DNA of 34,683 nucleotides. Origin: a bacterium. GTDB lineage: Bacteria > Patescibacteriota > Patescibacteriia > Magasanikbacterales > GWA2-37-8. A model generated the notes under the pieces. That model made no database searches and was not told the origin of the DNA. It was given only the letters and a program-made list of their open reading frames with translations. Location of the stretch: assembly GCA_021812425.1 (NCBI GenBank), contig JAKANM010000003.1:1-34683 (forward strand). The letters run 5' to 3'. Shown here in pieces: positions 1 to 8,282 of the stretch. The stretch's first letter is position 1. Every line of letters begins with the position of its first letter. The position numbers and the translations under genes are program-made.

Positions 1-754
1 CGGCAAAACCGAACTGGCCAAGACTCTAGCCAAAGTCCTCTATGCCAATCCGGAAGCCTTTATAAAATTAGACATGAGTGAATTCAACGAAAGTTTTGGC
101 GTCTCGAAACTTCTCGGCTCGCCGGCGGGATATATCGGATACAAAGAAAGCAACCATTTTACCGACAAAATAAAACTAAACCCGCACTGTGTGGTTCTGT
201 TTGATGAGATTGATAAAGCGCATCGCGATATTGTCAGGTTACTGCTACAAATTTTGGAGAACGGACAAATTACCGATTCGACCGGCAAAACTGTCTCGCT
301 TCGCCACGCTGTTATTATTCTTACCACTTCCTACGGCTCCGAAGAAATGAAAAAAAATGCTTTTGGCTTTGGAAACGCGGCCGTCAACGCCAAAGAAACC
401 AGACAGCGTCTTGTCGACAAACTCAAAGAATATTTTTCACCTGAAGTTATCAACCGGCTTGATCGCATCTGCTTCTTCAATACGCTGGATGCAGTTACGC
501 TTCAGAAACTCGCCGAACTCGAACTCAAACGTTTCAACGAACAGCTCCGCCATTACCACACTTCAATTTCTACCGACAACAAAGTCTTGGAGTGGGTCGT
601 CTCGCAAATTCCGGGAGCGAAAAGCGGCGCGCGCGAGGTGCGACAATTTATTCGCGAGCAAGTGGAAGGATTAATGACCGAAATTATCCTCCGAAAAAAA
701 GTAAAAAATAATTATCTGCTGACAGTCAGTGATAATGCTTTACTAGTTAAATAA
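1..754 (+). CDS. clpC: Clp protease ATP-binding subunit (ClpC/ClpA type), C-terminal AAA+ domain; 5' end lies outside the window
   Basis: Frame open from base 2: GKTELAKTLA (Walker A end), IKLDMSEF, GSPAGYIGY pore loop, VVLFDEIDKAH (Walker B), LLQILENG, FSPEVINRLD, GAREVR. An AFGF motif sits at the position of the ClpP-docking loop, favouring ClpC over ClpB. Confidence 0.85.
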   Translation, partial: GKTELAKTLAKVLYANPEAFIKLDMSEFNESFGVSKLLGSPAGYIGYKESNHFTDKIKLNPHCVVLFDEIDKAHRDIVRLLLQILENGQITDSTGKTVSLRHAVIILTTSYGSEEMKKNAFGFGNAAVNAKETRQRLVDKLKEYFSPEVINRLDRICFFNTLDAVTLQKLAELELKRFNEQLRHYHTSISTDNKVLEWVVSQIPGAKSGAREVRQFIREQVEGLMTEIILRKKVKNNYLLTVSDNALLVK

Positions 755-1473
755 TGTCTATTATGGCCGAAGGAGACCAAGCCATGACAAACCCACCAGG
801 CCTCGCCGCGAACGATCAAAGCGCGGTGGCTTCTGACCTCATGAAGGGTGATATTTCCGGCGATATAACATCGGTCTCAAAAAGGTCCGCTGGTCCGCAA
901 GCAGAAGTCGGAGAAGGCCAGCAACAAAATATCCAAACAAGCCTCGGCGCCGAAAGACAACGTCTACAGCAAATTCAAAGAGCGGAAGCAAAACTTACCG
1001 GAGAAGGAGCGGGGGCGGAAGCAGGCGGCAAGCTTTTTGGCGGCATAACCGGCGTGATTTTACAAAAAATCCCCGGGGTCGGCATGCTGATAAACAGATT
1101 TAAAAAATCCGCCGATTTAGAAAGTAAAATCAAGACACTTGAAAAAATGAAACGACGTTTAAAACTGGCGAAAACTACAGCGGCCATTGTCGATGCGATC
1201 AGACGATGGTCAGAGGCGGTCGCGGCGAGTAGCGAAACGATTGTCATCCCAATTTTTTTGGTGATCGGTTTCATCCCGTGGGTGATGTTCAGCGTCATCT
1301 TTGATCTTGGTCCGACCGCAAAAACGATTAACCAAGTTACAAAAAAAGCCGACAAAACGTTGTCGATGCTAAAAAAACTTGTCCAACAAAATGCGCAACG
1401 AAAAGCGGCGCTGAATGATCTAAGAGGAGCAGAAATTTCCGCCGCGCGTGAACAAGTTGAAAATGCCGCGTAA
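754..1473 (+). CDS. Hypothetical membrane-associated protein (Q/G/A-rich N-terminus, helical/coiled-coil segments, one long hydrophobic stretch)
   Basis: 239-aa ORF whose ATG overlaps the clpC stop (TAATG). Hydrophobic segment TIVIPIFLVIGFIPWVMFSVIF lies between Lys-rich helices. No family recognised. Confidence 0.75.
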   Translation: MSIMAEGDQAMTNPPGLAANDQSAVASDLMKGDISGDITSVSKRSAGPQAEVGEGQQQNIQTSLGAERQRLQQIQRAEAKLTGEGAGAEAGGKLFGGITGVILQKIPGVGMLINRFKKSADLESKIKTLEKMKRRLKLAKTTAAIVDAIRRWSEAVAASSETIVIPIFLVIGFIPWVMFSVIFDLGPTAKTINQVTKKADKTLSMLKKLVQQNAQRKAALNDLRGAEISAAREQVENAA

Positions 1474-1510
1474 TTTTTAAGTAAATGTATATATTTGAAA
1501 TTTTTCGTCT

Positions 1511-2743
1511 ATGAACCCCACCCTCAAACGCTTCCTCCTCATCGTCGGCCTCCTAGGTATTGCTTTTGTGATTAGCTTCGCGCTCTATAATGTTTTCAAA
1601 AAAGGACAGCCAGGAGCGCCTACTCAGCCGGGCGGTATCGGTCCTGGAGGTGTACCGAGTGGAATTTTACCAGGCGCTGGTTTTCGCGCCACCACTACCG
1701 GGGGCGAGGGCGTAAGCGGACCAGGAATACTGCCAAGCGCGAATATTGTTATCGGTTCTGCCAATGAAAATTATTATCGTCCGGCGGCCGTCACCAAACT
1801 CATCTCCGAAAACGCGGTCTTTCCTTCTCTATCAAACGGAAGCGTCCGCTTTCACAACGAAACTGACGGTAAATTTTATTCCCTGGGACCGGACGGAAAA
1901 ATGCGATCGCTAAGCGACCAAGTATTCTATAATGTCCAGAATGTCGTCTGGGCAAAAACTGCCAACAAAGCGGTCATAGAATATCCCGACAACAGCAAGA
2001 TAATTTACAATTTTGAAACCAAAACTCAGACTACACTCCCGAAACACTGGGAGGATTTTAGCTTCTCCCCTGATAGCACAGAAATAGCCGCCAAGAGCCT
2101 CGGTCTAGCGCCGGAAAACCGCTGGCTTATTACCACCAAAGACGATGGCTCAGGCGCTAAACTTATCGAACCGCTCGGCAATAACGCCGACAAAGTAACC
2201 ATGGATTGGTCGCCAAGCCGACAAACGGTTGCCTTCTCCCAAACCGGCGAAGCGCAAGGCGCTGACCGCAAAGAAATTTTGTTCCTCGGATTAAATGGTG
2301 AGAATTTCAAATCTATTATAGTTGAAGGTCTTGATTTCCAACCGCAATGGTCGCCCACCGGGCAAAAATTGCTTTATAGCGTCGACAGCGCGCGTAGCGA
2401 CTTCAAACCGGAACTCTGGATCGTAAATTCCTATGGAGATAATATTGGCGCGGGCCGTCAGCTTCTGCAGGTAAACACCTGGGCCAAAAAATGCGCTTTC
2501 GCCGATGACAGTACGCTCATTTGCGGGGTACCGCGGTCTCTCCCTGAGGGCGCTGGTATGTCACCCGCCATCGCAGCCGATACTCCCGACGATCTCTACC
2601 GGATCGACATCAAGACCGGCATTCGGACCCCCCTGCCGCTCGACAGGAACTACACGATTGATTCTATTTCATACGATGCCACCGGCCGAAAAGTCATTTT
2701 CACCGACCACCATCAAACTGGCGCATTTCAGGTAGCTCTCTAA
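1511..2743 (+). CDS. Membrane-anchored beta-propeller protein (TolB/PD40-like repeats)
   Basis: N-terminal TM (FLLIVGLLGIAFVISFALY), G/P/T-rich linker, and periodic blade motifs VVWAKT, FSFSPDS, DWSPSR, PQWSPTG, ISYDATG. Confidence 0.75.
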   Translation: MNPTLKRFLLIVGLLGIAFVISFALYNVFKKGQPGAPTQPGGIGPGGVPSGILPGAGFRATTTGGEGVSGPGILPSANIVIGSANENYYRPAAVTKLISENAVFPSLSNGSVRFHNETDGKFYSLGPDGKMRSLSDQVFYNVQNVVWAKTANKAVIEYPDNSKIIYNFETKTQTTLPKHWEDFSFSPDSTEIAAKSLGLAPENRWLITTKDDGSGAKLIEPLGNNADKVTMDWSPSRQTVAFSQTGEAQGADRKEILFLGLNGENFKSIIVEGLDFQPQWSPTGQKLLYSVDSARSDFKPELWIVNSYGDNIGAGRQLLQVNTWAKKCAFADDSTLICGVPRSLPEGAGMSPAIAADTPDDLYRIDIKTGIRTPLPLDRNYTIDSISYDATGRKVIFTDHHQTGAFQVAL

Positions 2744-2747
2744 CCTT

Positions 2748-3398
2748 ATGACATTTACCAACCGAAAACTCTTCGCTATCCTTCTTATTCTAACGACCAT
2801 CATCGGCCTCCTGCTTTGGAGAGAAATTAGAAATTTTGAGTCAATCACAACTTCCGCCTCGACCGAACCCCTCATCGCCGACAATAGCACTCCGCTCGAT
2901 ATTTCTTCCTCCGACCAAAGCCTGAATCCCGGCGGGCAACTAATCGTCGTCGAATACCAAGACCTAGGAAATTCTAAAGCAAAAATCCTGCATCAAGAGC
3001 TAACCAGTTTTGCGGAAAAAAATCCTGGCGTTCGTCTTGTTTTCAAACACGCGCCGATCGCGCATTTATTTTCTGACGGCGTCCTCGCCCACAAAGCCGC
3101 CTACTGCGCCGGATTACAGCATAAACTATGGTCATTTTTGGATAATTTGATTTCACGCGACTACGATCTGCGTGAGTCCGGAGTCCAAAAAGCGGCGGAG
3201 GAAACCGGACTTAACCTGCCTTTGTGGTCAACCTGTCTTGCGTCGGAAAATACCGCCGCTGCCATCAAAAAAGATTACGATGAGGCGAAAAGCCTTGAGC
3301 TTGGCGAGCCCCCATTAATTTTCATTAACAATAAAAAATTAAATACGAAACTTGATATAAATATTTCCGACTTGCTCTCGACCTTAATTGCCAAATAG
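2748..3398 (+). CDS. Membrane-anchored DsbA/BdbD-like thioredoxin-fold protein without the CxxC active site
   Basis: N-terminal TM; IVVEYQD, VRLVFKHAP, AHKAAYCAGLQHKLW, W-x-x-CL and AKSLELGEPPLIFINN follow the DsbA pattern, but the CxxC position reads NSKA. Confidence 0.8.
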   Translation: MTFTNRKLFAILLILTTIIGLLLWREIRNFESITTSASTEPLIADNSTPLDISSSDQSLNPGGQLIVVEYQDLGNSKAKILHQELTSFAEKNPGVRLVFKHAPIAHLFSDGVLAHKAAYCAGLQHKLWSFLDNLISRDYDLRESGVQKAAEETGLNLPLWSTCLASENTAAAIKKDYDEAKSLELGEPPLIFINNKKLNTKLDINISDLLSTLIAK

Positions 3399-3400
3399 CT

Positions 3401-4891
3401 ATGAAACGTCTTATATTTTTTATTCTTTGCATCGGATTGGTGATTTTTTATCGACCCCAATCCGTTTTCGCGGGATCATGTAAGTGCGATAAGAGCTTCA
3501 CGAACGTCGATAATACTACTATCCCGGATGCCTGCTACCCAAACCCCGTAAATAACGCTTCAGAATGCGCCGGCCGATTGGTCGATTCAAGCAGTGGCGA
3601 ATATATGAATTGTGTTTTCTGCTCTGACAATACGTGCTCGCTAGCCAGTTGTGAAGATTATGGACTTACTTCCGGCGGCGTAAATTGTACGACCGAAGAT
3701 AATTGCCGACAGATGGTCGGAAGCCCAACCGGAGTGGCCAAATGCCTGCACAGCGTCTGCTATTTCGATGCGGCGGCGCTGGCGTCAAAAGATAACCAAA
3801 CCGGCGTCCTTGGGATCGGTGAGGTGGTGAAGGTAAGCAATCCCACGCTGGAAATAAAAATCCCCGGACTAAATTTTAAGCCAATCGATCAAACGGTTGA
3901 TTCGGAGGGTTACCTCCATCTTACTTCTCTTGCCGAATACCTCGCCGCAGTTTATAAATTCGCGCTCGCGGCGGCGAGTATCGTGGCGGCGATCATGATC
4001 GTGGTTAACGGCTTTCGTATTTCGATATCGGCCGGCGGTGAACAAAAAAATATCGGGGTCAAACATATAACCCAAGCCGTCATCGGACTCGTGATCCTTT
4101 GGAGTTCATATTTTTTGTTCTATACGATCAATCCCGAGTTGGTGCAATTTAAGGCGCTGAAGGTTAGATTTATAAAACCAATAATTCTCCCCGAGATAGA
4201 AACAAGTATTTCAACTGGAAACGCCACTACTGGCCCTGCCCCCACTGGCTTAATGCAAATTCCGGACTCAACCCTTATTACCAACAAAGGAACTCAGCAG
4301 GCCTTGCCTGACGTTGTAACTGCTTTGCAAAGAGCCGTAGATGATTCTCAGGTAAAAATAATCGTTAGTAGTAGCTTCCGACCAGCATCAACTCAATACT
4401 CTCTGATGCAAAGCATGTGCGGCTGCCCAGCTGAATCGACCCTCGCACCTAACCTAAGTATGTCGGCGTTGAGCGCGCTCTGCACGTCATGTAGCGGCTG
4501 CCAGGCTGCCTGCGACTTAACTAGAGTAAACGGAGTTTTTCAGGCGCCGGCTATGAGCCACTTTGCCGGCAACACCGTCGATATCGCTTCCGCCGCGGAA
4601 GGCTCCAAGACAAATTGCACTGGCTCGGATGCTAACGTTAATTCAAGTATTAATGTTGTTATGACTCCGACCACAATTAACAATGCAACAACCTGCGTTC
4701 CTGAAGAGCAACAAAAATTAATCAAAGCGATGTTAAATAATGATTTTTGCGTGGGACTAAAAGCTAGCAGTCTGAGCTTGCGAGAATCCTGGCACTTTGA
4801 ATATACTAAAGCAGGCCTACCGGTTTCTGGCTTCTGCACTAACGATCTCAACGATGCAAATCTGCAAAAATTATATTACGTTCAAAATTGA
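3401..4891 (+). CDS. Signal peptide + Cys-rich domain + VirB2/TrbC-like pilin hairpin + M15-family (VanY-like) Zn peptidase fusion
   Basis: Signal peptide ending VFA. Two-TM segment LAEYLAAVYKFALAAASIVAAIMIVVNGF-SAGG-KHITQAVIGLVILWSSYFLFYTINPEL. C-terminal motifs SSFR-x4-Q, H-x6-D (SHFAGNTVD) and ExxH (ESWH). Confidence 0.8.
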   Translation: MKRLIFFILCIGLVIFYRPQSVFAGSCKCDKSFTNVDNTTIPDACYPNPVNNASECAGRLVDSSSGEYMNCVFCSDNTCSLASCEDYGLTSGGVNCTTEDNCRQMVGSPTGVAKCLHSVCYFDAAALASKDNQTGVLGIGEVVKVSNPTLEIKIPGLNFKPIDQTVDSEGYLHLTSLAEYLAAVYKFALAAASIVAAIMIVVNGFRISISAGGEQKNIGVKHITQAVIGLVILWSSYFLFYTINPELVQFKALKVRFIKPIILPEIETSISTGNATTGPAPTGLMQIPDSTLITNKGTQQALPDVVTALQRAVDDSQVKIIVSSSFRPASTQYSLMQSMCGCPAESTLAPNLSMSALSALCTSCSGCQAACDLTRVNGVFQAPAMSHFAGNTVDIASAAEGSKTNCTGSDANVNSSINVVMTPTTINNATTCVPEEQQKLIKAMLNNDFCVGLKASSLSLRESWHFEYTKAGLPVSGFCTNDLNDANLQKLYYVQN

Positions 4892-4897
4892 TCCGGC

Positions 4898-6229
4898 ATG
4901 AACAAGAATGTTTCAATATTCAAATGTTCCTCCTGCGACGCTCAGTATTCCAAATGGACTGGGCGTTGTTTAGAATGTGGAAAATGGGGAACTATCGTTG
5001 AAAGCTCAAAACCCCAATCGCCAATTTCCAAATCCACCGTACCGGCGGCGAAGACAGTGAAACTTGAAGAAATAAAAAGTGAAGGTGTTAGACGAGTGAA
5101 AACTAATATCGATGAACTTGATCGGGTGTTGGGCGGCGGTCTAGTCCCCGGCAGTCTAATCCTGCTTGGCGGCGAACCTGGAATCGGTAAATCCACTCTG
5201 ACGATCGAAATGGCTGCGAAGATTCAGAATGCGCTGGTAATTTCCGGCGAAGAATCAATCGGCCAAATAAAACTTCGCGCTGATCGGCTCAACATAAATT
5301 CCAAAAGTCTTGAACTAGCCAATGAAACAAACATCGAAATAATAATCGCGACGATTCTCACTAAAAAACCAACGCTCGTGATCATCGACTCAATGCAAAC
5401 GATTTTTTCTGCTGAAGTCGAGGGCGAAGCCGGCTCCCCCACCCAGATCCGGGCCTGCACCACCAAGCTCCTCGAAGCAGTGAAACCAACCCAGACCACC
5501 GCTGTCATCGTCGGCCATGTCACCAAAGAAGGAATAGTCGCCGGACCAAAAACCCTCGAACATTTGGTCGACACGGTTGTATATCTCGAAGGCGACCGCC
5601 ATCATTTTTATCGAATCCTTAGAACCGTAAAAAATCGCTTCGGATCAACCGATGAAGTCGGGGTATTCCAGATGCATGAAGGCGGTCTCCGCGAAGTCAA
5701 AAATCCTTCCGCTGCTTTTCTCTCGGAACGAGGAGAAAATCTTCCAGGAAATGTTCTGACCTGTCTGATCGAGGGTACGCGCCCCCTCATTGTCGAAGTG
5801 CAGGCGTTGGTTACCAAAACGGCCTTTGGCTATCCGACTCGCAAAGCCAGTGGTTTTGATTTGAACCGTCTGCACGTTCTAATAGCCGTGCTACAAAAAC
5901 GCGCGAAGCTCCAGCTCGAAAGCTATGATATCCATATCAACATTGCCGGCGGACTTACGGCCGACGAACCAGCCGCTGACCTCGCCATTGCTCTCGCCAT
6001 CGCTAGCGCCTACAAAGACAAACCGCTCGGCGGCGACCTCGTCGTCTTCGGAGAAATTGGACTTGGCGGCGAGGTCCGACCAATCGTTCAAGTAGAAAAA
6101 AGAATAAAGGAATGTGAACAGCTGGGTATGAAACGAATTTTAACCAATACCGGATCAAAAAAACTTACCTCGTCTAAACTTAAAATCCTGGACATCAAAA
6201 ATATCCAGGAGATAATCAAACACACCTAA
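4898..6229 (+). CDS. radA: DNA repair protein RadA/Sms
   Basis: C4 zinc finger CSSC/CLEC, Walker A GEPGIGKST, KNRFG motif, Lon-like C-terminal domain with GEIGLGGEVR. Confidence 0.97.
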   Translation: MNKNVSIFKCSSCDAQYSKWTGRCLECGKWGTIVESSKPQSPISKSTVPAAKTVKLEEIKSEGVRRVKTNIDELDRVLGGGLVPGSLILLGGEPGIGKSTLTIEMAAKIQNALVISGEESIGQIKLRADRLNINSKSLELANETNIEIIIATILTKKPTLVIIDSMQTIFSAEVEGEAGSPTQIRACTTKLLEAVKPTQTTAVIVGHVTKEGIVAGPKTLEHLVDTVVYLEGDRHHFYRILRTVKNRFGSTDEVGVFQMHEGGLREVKNPSAAFLSERGENLPGNVLTCLIEGTRPLIVEVQALVTKTAFGYPTRKASGFDLNRLHVLIAVLQKRAKLQLESYDIHINIAGGLTADEPAADLAIALAIASAYKDKPLGGDLVVFGEIGLGGEVRPIVQVEKRIKECEQLGMKRILTNTGSKKLTSSKLKILDIKNIQEIIKHT

Positions 6230-6230
6230 A

Positions 6231-8282
6231 CTACTCAAGGTGCACCGATTCTTTCCACTCTTTCATTTTTTTGACGAGTTCCGGAAATTCTAAAAGTTGA
6301 GATAAAATCACTCGCGCCGACTCACGGGCTTTTTTTATTAAAGCAGTGTCGGAAAGTTTAGCGAGGCGGAGCTGCATCATTCCACTCTGAGTAGTCCCAT
6401 AGACTTCCCCGGGGCCACGCAACTCCAAATCTTTTTCAGCCAGTTCAAAACCATTTTGATGTTTTTCAAAAAAACGCAGCCGCTCCAGGGTCCTGCTCGA
6501 ACCGTTATCCGAAAAAACAAAACAATAAGACTGCTTGTCACTGCGACCGACTCGGCCTCTAAACTGATGTAACTGCGCAAGACCAAACCGATCCGCGCCT
6601 TCGACCATCATGACAGTCGCGTTCGGCACATCCACCCCAACCTCGATCACCGAAGTCGAAACCAAAATATCATTTTCCTTATTTTTAAACGCCGCCATTA
6701 TTTTTTCTTTTTCTTCACCTTTCATTTTTCCATGCAAATAACTTACGCGCATCTCTGGAAAAATCTGCTCGGATAATTTTTTGTATTCGGTGAGGACGGA
6801 TTTTTTTTCGATCTGCGCGGAAGGGTTGTCTTCTATCAACGGACAAACGACGAATACTTGCCCACCTTTTTCTACTTCTTTACGGATAAACTCATACGCC
6901 TTGTCGCGATTTCGCGGCTCGACGATCCTGGTCGTGACCGGCTTTCTGCCAGGCGGCATCTCTCTGATGATCGAGACATCAAGATCTCCGTAGACCATCA
7001 GGGCGAGCGAACGCGGGATCGGTGTCGCCGTCATGCTGAGAAAATGCACTCCACGTCCTTTTTCTTTGATTACCTTACGTTGTAAAACTCCAAAGCGATG
7101 CTGTTCATCCACGACCGCGAGGCCAACATTTTTAAATTCGACCCCTTCGGAAAGCAAAGCATGTGTCCCCAGGATCACATTCGCCTCGCCTGAGGTGATT
7201 ATTTTTTGCAGTTCTTTTTTTGAGACCTCGGACCTCTCCTGATTTTTAAATATTAAATGTTGTGAACGAGTAAACAAGGCTAGCGTCTGGTCGGGCAATA
7301 ATCTGCAAACCGAATCAAAATGCTGAAATGCCAAGATTTCCGTTGGCGCCATCATGATCCCCTGAAAACCGGAAAGGACGGCATTATAAAGAGCGACCGC
7401 GGCGACCACCGTCTTGCCGGACCCGACGTCGCCCGACAACAACCTGTTCATCGGCGCTTCTTCCGCAATATTTTTTAAAATTTCCCAGGCCGCGATTTTT
7501 TGATCCTTGGTGAGGATGAACAGCAAACCAGCCACAAACTTTTTAATTTCCTCCTCATGAAAAGTCAAAGCCGGAGCCCGAAGCACGGTCCGTTCATGGC
7601 GTGCGAGCTCCGTCTGCAGCTGGACTAAAAATAATTCATCAAACTTCAGACGTTCAGTCGCAGAATTAATTTGCGCGTCAGAATCCGGGAAATGAATTTG
7701 CTTTATCGCCTCTCCCAACGTGATAAGATTATTTTCTTTTTTAATTTTCTCCGGCAGCCAATCTACGAGATTGGACGCGGCCGGCAACGACTGCTCGACC
7801 AAAAATCGAACTTGCTTCTGCGTGATTCCTTCGGTAAGAGGATACATCGGCACAAGACGAGCAGTATGGATATTACGCCGTGAGGCCAATTCATAAGCGG
7901 GACTTACAAACTGCAGACCAAGCGAATCGCGTTTTACCACTCCGGAAATATAAACTTCGGTGCCGGTCTCAAGATTTTTTGTGAGGTACGGCTGATTAAA
8001 CCAAACTAATCTAATGCTCCCAGTCTCATCGGTAAGCAGCGCTTCAGTAAGACTACGTCGATTGCGAATACGACGATTGGCGATCAATTCGATTGCGCCT
8101 TTCACTGTGACCGCATCACCCTCCCGTAACTCCTTAATCGGCGCGACGCGGCTGAAATCCTCATAGCGAAAAGGGTAGTGATGAAGTAAATTATTAACTG
8201 TAAAAATGCCAAGCCGTTCCAATCTTTTGGCTGTGGTCTTTCCGACTTTGTTCAAAGCCTCAATTCGTGTTTCTAGGTTCAT
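6231..8282 (-). CDS. recG: ATP-dependent DNA helicase RecG
   Basis: Wedge domain WFNQPY, RLLSGDVGSGKT, VDEQHRFG, MTATPIPRSL, QLHQFRGRVGR, DLELRGPGE. Start is 8282 (MNLETRI) or 8300. Confidence 0.97.
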   Translation of the reverse strand: MNLETRIEALNKVGKTTAKRLERLGIFTVNNLLHHYPFRYEDFSRVAPIKELREGDAVTVKGAIELIANRRIRNRRSLTEALLTDETGSIRLVWFNQPYLTKNLETGTEVYISGVVKRDSLGLQFVSPAYELASRRNIHTARLVPMYPLTEGITQKQVRFLVEQSLPAASNLVDWLPEKIKKENNLITLGEAIKQIHFPDSDAQINSATERLKFDELFLVQLQTELARHERTVLRAPALTFHEEEIKKFVAGLLFILTKDQKIAAWEILKNIAEEAPMNRLLSGDVGSGKTVVAAVALYNAVLSGFQGIMMAPTEILAFQHFDSVCRLLPDQTLALFTRSQHLIFKNQERSEVSKKELQKIITSGEANVILGTHALLSEGVEFKNVGLAVVDEQHRFGVLQRKVIKEKGRGVHFLSMTATPIPRSLALMVYGDLDVSIIREMPPGRKPVTTRIVEPRNRDKAYEFIRKEVEKGGQVFVVCPLIEDNPSAQIEKKSVLTEYKKLSEQIFPEMRVSYLHGKMKGEEKEKIMAAFKNKENDILVSTSVIEVGVDVPNATVMMVEGADRFGLAQLHQFRGRVGRSDKQSYCFVFSDNGSSRTLERLRFFEKHQNGFELAEKDLELRGPGEVYGTTQSGMMQLRLAKLSDTALIKKARESARVILSQLLEFPELVKKMKEWKESVHLE

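Follow-up and report, generated by a model that had tools for sequence, protein, structure and literature searches.

Type IV secretion systems (T4SSs) with VirB2-like pilins of the family PF18895 have been described in Patescibacteria (Wang et al., 2023; Quinonero-Coronel et al., 2025), and for 1135 of 1948 assemblies pilin genes close to virB4 have been reported. In the only Patescibacterium for which genetic studies are available, neither the T4SS nor the pilin array is dispensable, and what the T4SS does is described as unknown (PMC10633639, PMC11665869, PMC12857230). A survey of 3,035 genomes reported that most of those with VirB2-like pilins lack a VirB1 wall hydrolase (PMC12102498); the VirB1-like peptidoglycan hydrolases of monoderm T4SSs cited there include PrgK and TraG of pIP501. 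In the T4SS cluster of S. epibionticum, a lysozyme-like/cysteine-protease protein and a Hedgehog/DD-peptidase protein (SEML1_0006 and SEML1_0007) stand beside VirB4, and the pilins are separate proteins (Wang 2023, Table S2). In this study, we consider the open reading frame (ORF) 3401-4891 of contig JAKANM010000003.1, a stretch of 34,683 nucleotides that was analysed as a whole and is called the window here. Its product of 496 amino acids joins a hairpin homologous to VirB2-like pilins to a predicted M15 peptidoglycan peptidase, and among relatives the hydrolase is exchanged while the pilin module is kept.

The hairpin of this protein is homologous to that of the Patescibacteria VirB2-like pilins and shares their G-G/N-E/D loop, and an array of such pilins is encoded in the same genome. 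However, the array pilins are short (127-204 residues), diverge fast and occur in arrays, whereas ORF 3401-4891 encodes a long protein with extra flanks around a conserved hairpin and two ectodomains of ~110 and ~205 residues, one of them a predicted enzyme, and lies in a housekeeping slot. The small size of a pilin is therefore a feature that the protein lacks. With the VirB1-like hydrolases it has in common a membrane tether, several domains, a predicted extracytoplasmic location and interchangeable catalytic classes, but those hydrolases sit inside T4SS clusters, whereas the gene for this fusion with a pilin module lies elsewhere. The Hedgehog/DD-peptidase domain of SEML1_0007 belongs to the same fold class as the C-terminal domain (C-domain) studied here, and Wang 2023 (Table S2, part 1) lists no pilin-type hairpin for SEML1_0006 or SEML1_0007. 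In the literature we found no paper that describes the fusion of a wall hydrolase with a VirB2-like pilin, although the supplements of the T4SS survey (Table S3, Fig. S9) may list long VirB2-like proteins; by term search, the text of that survey (PMC12102498) uses "fused" or "fusion" only for VirB3-VirB4 and "additional domains" only for VirB1 homologues.

That ORF 3401-4891 is a real, conserved gene is shown by 34 database proteins that match its product at E<=1e-3, the best of them over the full length (E 4.9e-193, 62% identity, 100% query coverage); the named relatives are labelled "Patescibacteria group bacterium" and "Candidatus Magasanikbacteria". A signal peptide, two domains with 12 and 10 Cys, a hairpin, an INP motif and M15 motifs had been read from the letters in the initial annotation, and each was recovered by script. 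Of the 23 Cys of the protein, one (C10) belongs to the signal peptide, and residues 27-120 and 340-479 hold 12 and 10, respectively; hydropathy gives three hydrophobic segments (~4-24, 180-212 and 223-244). The hairpin that the annotation had placed at 3929-4144 corresponds to residues 177-248 and covers the last two of these segments. The motifs lie at residues 243-245 (INP, nucleotide 4127), 325-332 (SFRPASTQ, 4373), 387-394 (H387-x6-D394, 4559) and 462-465 (E462-x2-H465, 4784). The mature N-terminus, AGSCxC, is kept in the aligned homologues. An AlphaFold2 model on the alignment of homologues has a mean predicted local distance difference test score (pLDDT) of 76 for the whole protein, which falls below 50 at residues 259-275, within the part of the protein where a linker rich in T, S, G and P begins. 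Given a signal peptide followed by two hydrophobic helices, both Cys-rich domains probably sit outside the membrane. The protein matched 0 families of NCBIfam, and 0 families of PHROGs were matched by it, by nine orthologues whose C-terminal cargo was not recognised or by a paralogue on contig C46 that is described below.

The pilin nature of the hairpin is supported at several levels. The Pfam profile T4SS_pilin (PF18895) matches residues 176-242 over its positions 4-70 of 71 with 28.0 bits against a cut-off of 26.6, and the ORF scores 31.5 bits in a six-frame search of the genome. A profile-profile alignment (hhalign) of 30 long-form modules with nine short pilins of the same genome gave a probability of 95.2% and E 2.5e-8 over 63 columns, which cover both helices and the loop; for the same relationship, pairwise BLASTP gave E 7e-4. 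Because of the hhalign result, we consider the hairpin to be homologous to the organism's own VirB2-like pilins, beyond mere shared composition. The modelled helices span residues 175-209 and 213-243. Across the modules of 30 positional orthologues, nine residues are invariant, the GG of the loop among them. In the flank ahead of the hairpin, a P is invariant and a D and a G are nearly so; in the flank behind it, little or no variation is seen at L, V, F, L and K (consensus INP.LV.FKALKV.YI.P). The INP motif and the flank behind it are specific to the long forms, and the short pilins stop soon after the second helix. The alignment of the genome's short pilins holds no counterpart of either flank, and the 63 shared columns are those of the hairpin only. 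Identity to the window protein among 15 homologues is 46-88% for the hairpin, 41-89% for the whole module, 11-51% for the N-terminal domain (N-domain) and 17-66% for the C-domain; as measured by these identities, no other part of the protein is as constrained as the module. The array pilins have a mean column identity of 32%, compared with 51% in the long-form module. For the long-form module and an array pilin in two copies, complex prediction gave a score of 0.00 in a run without controls, which counts neither for nor against an interaction.

The C-domain is supported, by motif conservation and by its modelled structure, as an intact M15-type peptidase with the LAS fold. In 16 aligned full-length homologues, R327, Q332, H387, D394, E462, W464 and H465 are invariant, as are the cysteines C29, C340, C406, C432, C450 and C479. 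The AlphaFold2 model of the domain has a pLDDT of ~85-95 over most of its length, and the top Foldseek matches of the model are VanXYc, VanY, LdcB, Ply500, LysB4 and ChiX, with a probability of 1.00 for VanXYc and VanY. Structural alignment with VIA-align gave Z 11.7 to VanXYg, at a root-mean-square deviation (rmsd) of 2.9 over 138 residues, followed by VanXYc (11.1), LdcB (10.4), VanY (9.6), Ply500 (9.0) and the hedgehog N-domains (8.6). The M15 peptidases VanY, VanXY, LdcB, Ply500 and LysB4 thus share with the domain a common LAS fold (Z 9.0-11.7), H-x6-D, E-x-x-H and an upstream Arg. Unlike these known enzymes, the domain carries ten Cys and two Cys-rich inserts (residues 340-371 and 396-432), lacks the Ser and the Ala of the motif SxHxxGxAxD, and scores below the Pfam cut-off. 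In this motif, known from VanY (PMC3610138), the window protein reads M-S-H-F-A-G-N-T-V-D, in which H, G and D fit, the Ser is shifted by one position and the Ala is replaced by Thr. Between 138 and 148 of the ~205 residues superpose on solved M15 enzymes, to which the domain is 13-22% identical, and the remainder includes the two inserts. The Pfam profile VanY matches residues 304-469 with E 0.015 and 15.5 bits, below its cut-off of 25, although the same domain of the aligned homologue P0011 passes this profile at 29.2 bits. A sequence profile searched against Protein Data Bank (PDB) sequences reached E of only 0.2-0.7, and all six matches were M15 peptidases. Therefore, the intact M15 domain of the initial annotation stands in its motif residues and its modelled fold, and departs from the described enzymes in the Ser and Ala of SxHxxGxAxD; of the two profiles named in its proposed check, T4SS_pilin passed its cut-off and VanY did not.

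Two homologues bear the Joint Genome Institute (JGI) label D-alanyl-D-alanine dipeptidase. As possible stand-alone copies of this M15 subtype, we considered P0059, which starts inside the C-terminal flank of the module and was rejected as a truncated pilin fusion, and P0140, a sequence that begins within M15 and is too short to be classified. Searches of the organism's own genome (94% complete) returned no SLT, NlpC/P60 or VanY match within their thresholds (E<=0.01 for VanY), and two strong M23 peptidases were found (99.5 and 91.9 bits).

The catalytic domain behind the linker differs among relatives. We scanned with Pfam the C-terminal domains of 30 ORFs from 29 related loci. Nine of these ORFs carry an M15-type cargo, eight by Pfam (VanY or Peptidase_M15) and one (L034) because its alignment with the window protein extends to residue 496; Peptidase_C39_2 occurs in four, Amidase_2 in three, SLT in two (one also with a GDSL esterase), and a weak 3D-domain match in one. 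No recognised C-terminal domain was found in nine ORFs, and the C-terminus of two is cut by the end of the locus. Within the genus of the window alone, both M15 (G000 and G042) and C39_2 (G003) occur, and the M15 of G042 (listed as P0004) is of another subtype, with a C-domain only 18% identical to that of the window protein. The homologue P0003 is 67% identical over residues 1-265, with a nearly identical hairpin, after which the similarity ends and an NlpC/P60 domain follows; similarity to the same-genus orthologue L014 stops at ~295.

The degree of relatedness of the module does not predict that of the cargo. In P0004, P0005 and P0006 the module is 79-89% identical to that of the window protein and the C-domain 17-19%, whereas in P0007, P0008 and P0009 the values are 48-56% and 40-45%. 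A module tree with 19 tips of recognised cargo requires at least 8 class changes, the possible range being 3 to 9. The well-supported sister tips L015 (M15) and L019 (Amidase_2) differ in cargo, with a Shimodaira-Hasegawa-like approximate likelihood ratio test (SH-aLRT) value of 97, and the deeper part of the tree is poorly resolved. At the level of sequence, module and cargo relationships are decoupled. These alignments demonstrate a recombination-like exchange of ectodomains at the linker, with the hairpin module held constant in a fixed slot.

The same plan is found well beyond the close relatives. An exhaustive search of representative proteins returned 7,953 at E<=1e-3 and 102 at E<=1e-30, and most of the matches listed centre on query residues ~135-270, in proteins that are mostly 350-800 residues long. 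Of 150 listed representatives, 13 had been scanned earlier and one was a 112-residue fragment identical to the window protein; among the remaining 136, a recognised wall hydrolase was found in 73, namely in 39 of 68 at E<=1e-3 and in 34 of 68 at E<=1e-4. The M15 clan accounts for 32, SLT for 14, C39_2 for nine, Amidase_2 for eight, NlpC/P60 for four, M23 for three, and CHAP, Glucosaminidase and GH18 for one each. That the C-terminal cargo may be swappable between strains had been proposed from the window alone, and the tabulated orthologues (M15, C39_2, Amidase_2, SLT and SLT with GDSL), together with the switch of P0003 to NlpC/P60, strongly support this proposal. Table 1 gives the coordinates of the gene, its parts and the associated genes.

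Table 1. Location of ORF 3401-4891, its predicted parts, its neighbours in the window, and the T4SS-related loci on other contigs of the genome.
Feature	Location	Strand	Basis
Whole gene (ATG start, 496 residues plus stop), predicted modular pilin-like protein with peptidoglycan peptidase	3401..4891	+	ORF list, homologues
Signal peptide, residues 1-24, ends VFA|GS	3401..3472	+	Hydrophobic stretch at residues 4-24; modelled helix 2-16
N-terminal ectodomain, residues 25-135, 12 Cys	3473..3805	+	Cys positions, domain model
Conserved flank ahead of hairpin, residues 146-176 (P.LEI.IPGL.F......D.EGY.HL)	3836..3928	+	30 positional orthologues
VirB2-like two-helix hairpin, residues 177-245, short loop SAGGEQKNIGVKH	3929..4135	+	PF18895, hhalign, modelled helices
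Conserved flank after hairpin, residues 246-262 (LVQFKALKVRFIKP)	4136..4186	+	30 orthologues
T/S/G/P-rich linker, residues 263-290, where cargo variants lose similarity	4187..4270	+	pLDDT, pairwise breakpoints
Predicted M15 (VanY/LdcB-like, LAS fold) zinc peptidase domain, residues 291-496, 10 Cys, Cys-rich inserts	4271..4888	+	Pfam, Foldseek, VIA
R327 codon, putative substrate-binding Arg of SFR-x4-Q	4379..4381	+	Invariant in 16 of 16 sequences
H387-x6-D394, putative Zn ligands	4559..4582	+	Motif; no variation at H387 or D394 in 16 sequences
E462-x2-H465, putative catalytic Glu and third Zn ligand	4784..4795	+	E462, W464 and H465 invariant in 16 of 16
TolB-like beta-propeller gene, N-terminal hydrophobic stretch resembling a membrane anchor; first of block	1511..2743	+	Weak TolB and PD40 matches
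DsbA-like thioredoxin-fold gene without CxxC, 2 nucleotides upstream of ORF 3401-4891	2748..3398	+	Pfam DSBA, 26.8 bits
RadA gene, 6 nucleotides downstream of ORF 3401-4891	4898..6229	+	Pfam; present at 18 of the 29 related loci
Tandem array of at least 10 short VirB2-like pilins	L010:11312-16081 (C41); L043:19-336, 1909-2289 (C14)
T4SS-like cluster: ComF-like phosphoribosyltransferase, VirB4-like ATPase, PrgI, and ORFs of 922 and 1251 residues without Pfam match	L042:1605-15793 (C13)

The window is the whole of contig C10 in a fragmented genome of 742 kb in 55 contigs. Four genes of the same strand, TolB-like, DsbA-like, ORF 3401-4891 and RadA, follow one another at 2-6 nucleotides. In the 29 related loci, which cover ~1.5 kb on either side of the match, a DsbA-like gene is adjacent in 27, a TolB-like gene is seen in 23 and RadA in 18. 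The DsbA-like neighbour is missing from two loci: in L016 the upstream place is taken by a further long pilin gene, and L022 ends before that position. Because of these shared neighbours, we treat the long pilin-module genes of the related loci as positional orthologues. With residues 1-260 as the query, 61 of 61 sampled genomes of the family (G000 included) gave a match, with 1-5 matches per genome and most frames 380-700 residues long. A single-sequence search with the module only (E<=1e-8) gave matches in 14 of the 121 genomes that had been sampled from the whole phylum, so that the close form is lineage-restricted; long open frames around pilin hairpins were also found in other families.

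The genes that would be expected of a pilus system lie elsewhere in the genome. There are 14 matches of PF18895, 11 of them above the cut-off, and 10 form a tandem array that reaches the end of contig C41 and seems to go on in C14. The first two pilins of the array have AAGxCxC after the signal peptide, as in ORF 3401-4891, and N-terminal extensions containing Cys, and two others end in Cys-rich tails. With these small accreted ectodomains, the array pilins form a graded series up to the long forms. On C13, a VirB4-like ATPase of 625 residues, with a TraG P-loop and AAA_10, adjoins PrgI, and the 11 ORFs read around it contained no Pfam wall hydrolase at E<=1e-3. The gene order of this cluster resembles that of the S. 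epibionticum cluster as given in Table S2 of Wang 2023.

We give about an even chance to the explanation that the pilin module couples a peptidoglycan hydrolase to a T4SS-like pilus system. The hairpin module would put the protein into the membrane pool and the assembly route of the array pilins and of the VirB4/PrgI-type T4SS, with the constrained hairpin and its flanks docking it into this pathway. The peptidoglycan-cleaving enzyme would thereby be held where the pilus or channel crosses the wall, and the protein would be, in functional terms, a VirB2 fused to a VirB1. Any bond-breaking enzyme would do at a wall crossing, and hydrolase classes could be exchanged freely because any of them would serve. 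Disulfide bonds would make the exposed domains sturdier, and their folding would be aided by the neighbouring DsbA-like protein. In line with this explanation, the genome encodes a VirB4-like ATPase, PrgI and a pilin array, no Pfam hydrolase was found in the 11 ORFs read around VirB4, and in S. epibionticum wall hydrolases stand next to VirB4. The wall that is opened could be the producer's own, for passage of the pilus, or that of a host, if the subunit rides out on the pilus, and we rate these two as roughly equal in probability.

Several observations weigh against this coupling. In the assembly of 55 contigs, the ORF lies on another contig (C10) than the VirB4-like gene (C13) and the array (C41 and C14), and no T4SS gene was found among the 26 ORFs scanned of the 42 listed for the window. 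Two ectodomains of the size given above would crowd the helical lattice of a VirB2-type pilus, and therefore at most sparse or terminal incorporation seems possible. The conserved neighbours are of envelope type (TolB-like and DsbA-like), with which a T4SS-independent wall function fits equally well. The closest M15 structures are carboxypeptidases and dipeptidases, which trim stems and do not open the wall, and the VanY score of the domain is below the cut-off. The hairpin superposes on the conjugation pilus of A. pernix (8dfu; VIA Z 8.4, rmsd 2.5, 72 residues), but this match is tied with those to unrelated helical hairpins. Finally, K251, K254, R256 and K259 follow the second helix on its supposed outer side, which is unusual under the positive-inside rule. 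The overall interpretation first offered for the gene, a minor pilin that presents a wall-cutting enzyme to the host, is thus borne out for the pilin-like hairpin, the M15 domain and the polymorphic cargo, and weakened by the position of the gene outside both the T4SS cluster and the pilin array.

The protein could instead be a T4SS-independent autolysin, which we regard as possible though unlikely. Its pilin-derived hairpin would then serve as a membrane anchor or oligomerisation device, and its enzyme would remodel the producer's wall from within an envelope operon with the TolB-like and DsbA-like genes. The strict synteny with these genes, the distance from the T4SS genes and the presence in every sampled genome of the family all agree with an autolysin; the linker, of ~30-45 residues, could reach the producer's own wall, and monoderm autolysins are likewise modular and variable in catalytic class. 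However, if the hairpin were only an anchor, there would be little reason for it to retain the motif that it shares with pilins in the cytoplasmic loop, or to show an identity of 81-88% where the C-domain is only 17-19% identical. Moreover, the two M23 peptidases of the genome could already serve division, and two cargo classes within one genus would be odd for an enzyme matched to its own wall chemistry. The nature of the enzyme is a separate matter, since wherever the protein is located, its M15 domain may be a D,D- or L,D-carboxypeptidase of the VanY/LdcB type that trims stems, limiting cross-linking or editing precursors, and not an endopeptidase that opens the wall. We are doubtful of this assignment. 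The best structural neighbours, VanXYg, VanXYc, LdcB, VanX and VanY (Z 9.6-11.7), outscore the L-Ala-D-Glu endolysins LysB4 and Ply500 (Z 9.0-9.2), and the JGI dipeptidase label of two homologues points the same way, but the Z gaps are only 2-3 units and partly reflect target size, and the Cys-rich inserts obscure the shape of the substrate cleft. The same slot also holds amidases, lytic transglycosylases and cysteine peptidases that do open the wall, and because these classes are interchangeable there, a shared wall-cleaving role can be argued.

Within the coupling of pilin module and hydrolase to the T4SS, a more specific case would be a host-directed minor or tip pilin, whose N-domain would recognise the host surface, whose C-domain would digest the host wall, and whose cargo swaps would follow the type of host wall. 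Both ectodomains are hypervariable and disulfide-rich around a constant module, the cargo changes on the module tree are near their maximum (8 of 9), and the cultivated Patescibacteria are obligate epibionts in which the T4SS and the pilin array are essential (PMC10633639, PMC11665869, PMC12857230). Nevertheless, we hold this case to be rather unlikely. An immunity-like gene was not found downstream, and there is no room for one because RadA begins 6 nucleotides after the stop; the N-domain yielded no recognisable binding fold in the Foldseek and VIA searches; and the higher conservation of the module relative to the array pilins (51% vs. 32%) fits a machine-facing part better than a surface-exposed one. 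It is likewise a speculative, improbable proposal that T4SS-like pili use modular pilins as exchangeable warheads, in which the hairpin would load the subunit, the N-domain would read the host surface and the swapped hydrolase would drill through host peptidoglycan. If this were true, the cassette in the slot would be a determinant of the hosts that an epibiont can tap.

The disulfide-rich N-domain has a beta-rich first half and a second half resembling a small defensin or cystine-dense peptide (model pLDDT 81.6), and it is the most variable region of the protein. Foldseek against the PDB returned nothing for it at E<=0.001, and a wide VIA search of 48,161 chains found none at Z>=5, the best (Z 3.9) being a cystine-dense peptide over 37 residues. 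In the ESM Atlas there was no usable match by features, and the template modelling (TM) scores by structure were below 0.5. Weak Pfam matches of homologues to Toxin_2 and Nodulin_late are leads only.

The combination of a constant part with a variable one has precedents of several kinds. Evolved VgrG spikes and phage tail lysins join a constant machine part to a variable wall hydrolase. In PilB of Streptococcus sanguinis, the module grafted on the pilin is reportedly an adhesin and not an enzyme. The design logic of PilB, a functional module on a pilin that lends the filament a new activity, is the same as here (PMC8179133), but its pilin belongs to an unrelated superfamily (type 4 filament, single N-terminal helix). 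The bacteria-killing effectors of the X-T4SS likewise combine a constant part recognised by the machine with a variable peptidoglycan hydrolase (PMC6536674). Such effectors, the VgrG spikes and the tail lysins go with cognate immunity genes or virion entry, whereas ORF 3401-4891 is followed by RadA. Polymorphic toxin and effector loci share with it a constant N-terminal part, a variable C-terminal domain and a sharp junction, but have a cognate immunity gene downstream, for which RadA stands here.

If the proposed coupling is correct, a widespread and positionally conserved fusion of pilin and hydrolase would offer a concrete answer to the puzzle of the missing VirB1. It would also make testable the question of how the pilus of an ultrasmall epibiont passes a wall, either its own or that of the host. 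The cargo swaps on a constant module form a natural experimental series and may be a source of disulfide-stabilised wall hydrolases.

The contig is otherwise of housekeeping type (ClpB-type ATPase, RadA, RecG, LCP protein, Der, DprA, TopA, RelA/SpoT, ParAB, SecY and ribosomal proteins). The TolB-like gene is the best conserved of the block, with 46-78% identity across the family compared with ~30-53% for the pilin-hydrolase. The DsbA-like protein has lost its CxxC site (…VEYQDLGNSKAK…), though the adjoining protein has 22 Cys that are predicted to be extracytoplasmic. Among 26 informative positional orthologues of the DsbA-like gene, 17 keep CxxC and nine have lost it, and a non-catalytic, chaperone-like role is possible for the partner without the site. 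Upstream of the block, the start of an ORF of 239 residues (754-1473, +) shares one base with the stop of the ClpB-type gene; the N-terminal half of its product is rich in Gln and Glu and resembles a coiled coil, and the product also has a hydrophobic segment and only weak, sub-threshold family matches. A promoter and terminator scan of positions 600-6400 gave counts of 7 and 14 against 6.2 and 8.3 in shuffled sequence; with counts this near to shuffled sequence, no clear promoter or terminator signal was found inside the gene block. Reads containing this DNA come from four runs of one study, labelled mine drainage metagenome, and no RNA run is listed.

A second long pilin-module protein, of 557 residues, is encoded on contig C46 (L011:2512-4185), with a signal peptide, an N-domain containing Cys and a PF18895 hairpin with YTINPDLV. 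Its C-domain of ~330 residues is Cys-rich and has no Pfam or PHROG match. The gene is preceded by a DsbA-like gene (L011:1664-2434) with the active site CPFS, and UvrA lies downstream; a match of this type is present in most genomes of the family. In some relatives, two long pilin-module genes lie 1-2 kb apart on one contig, as in L016 (G016:C19) and L040 (G032:C6), and such pairs also occur in G023, G012, G046, G044 and G175. In the pair of L016, one gene carries VanY and the other the weak 3D-domain match.

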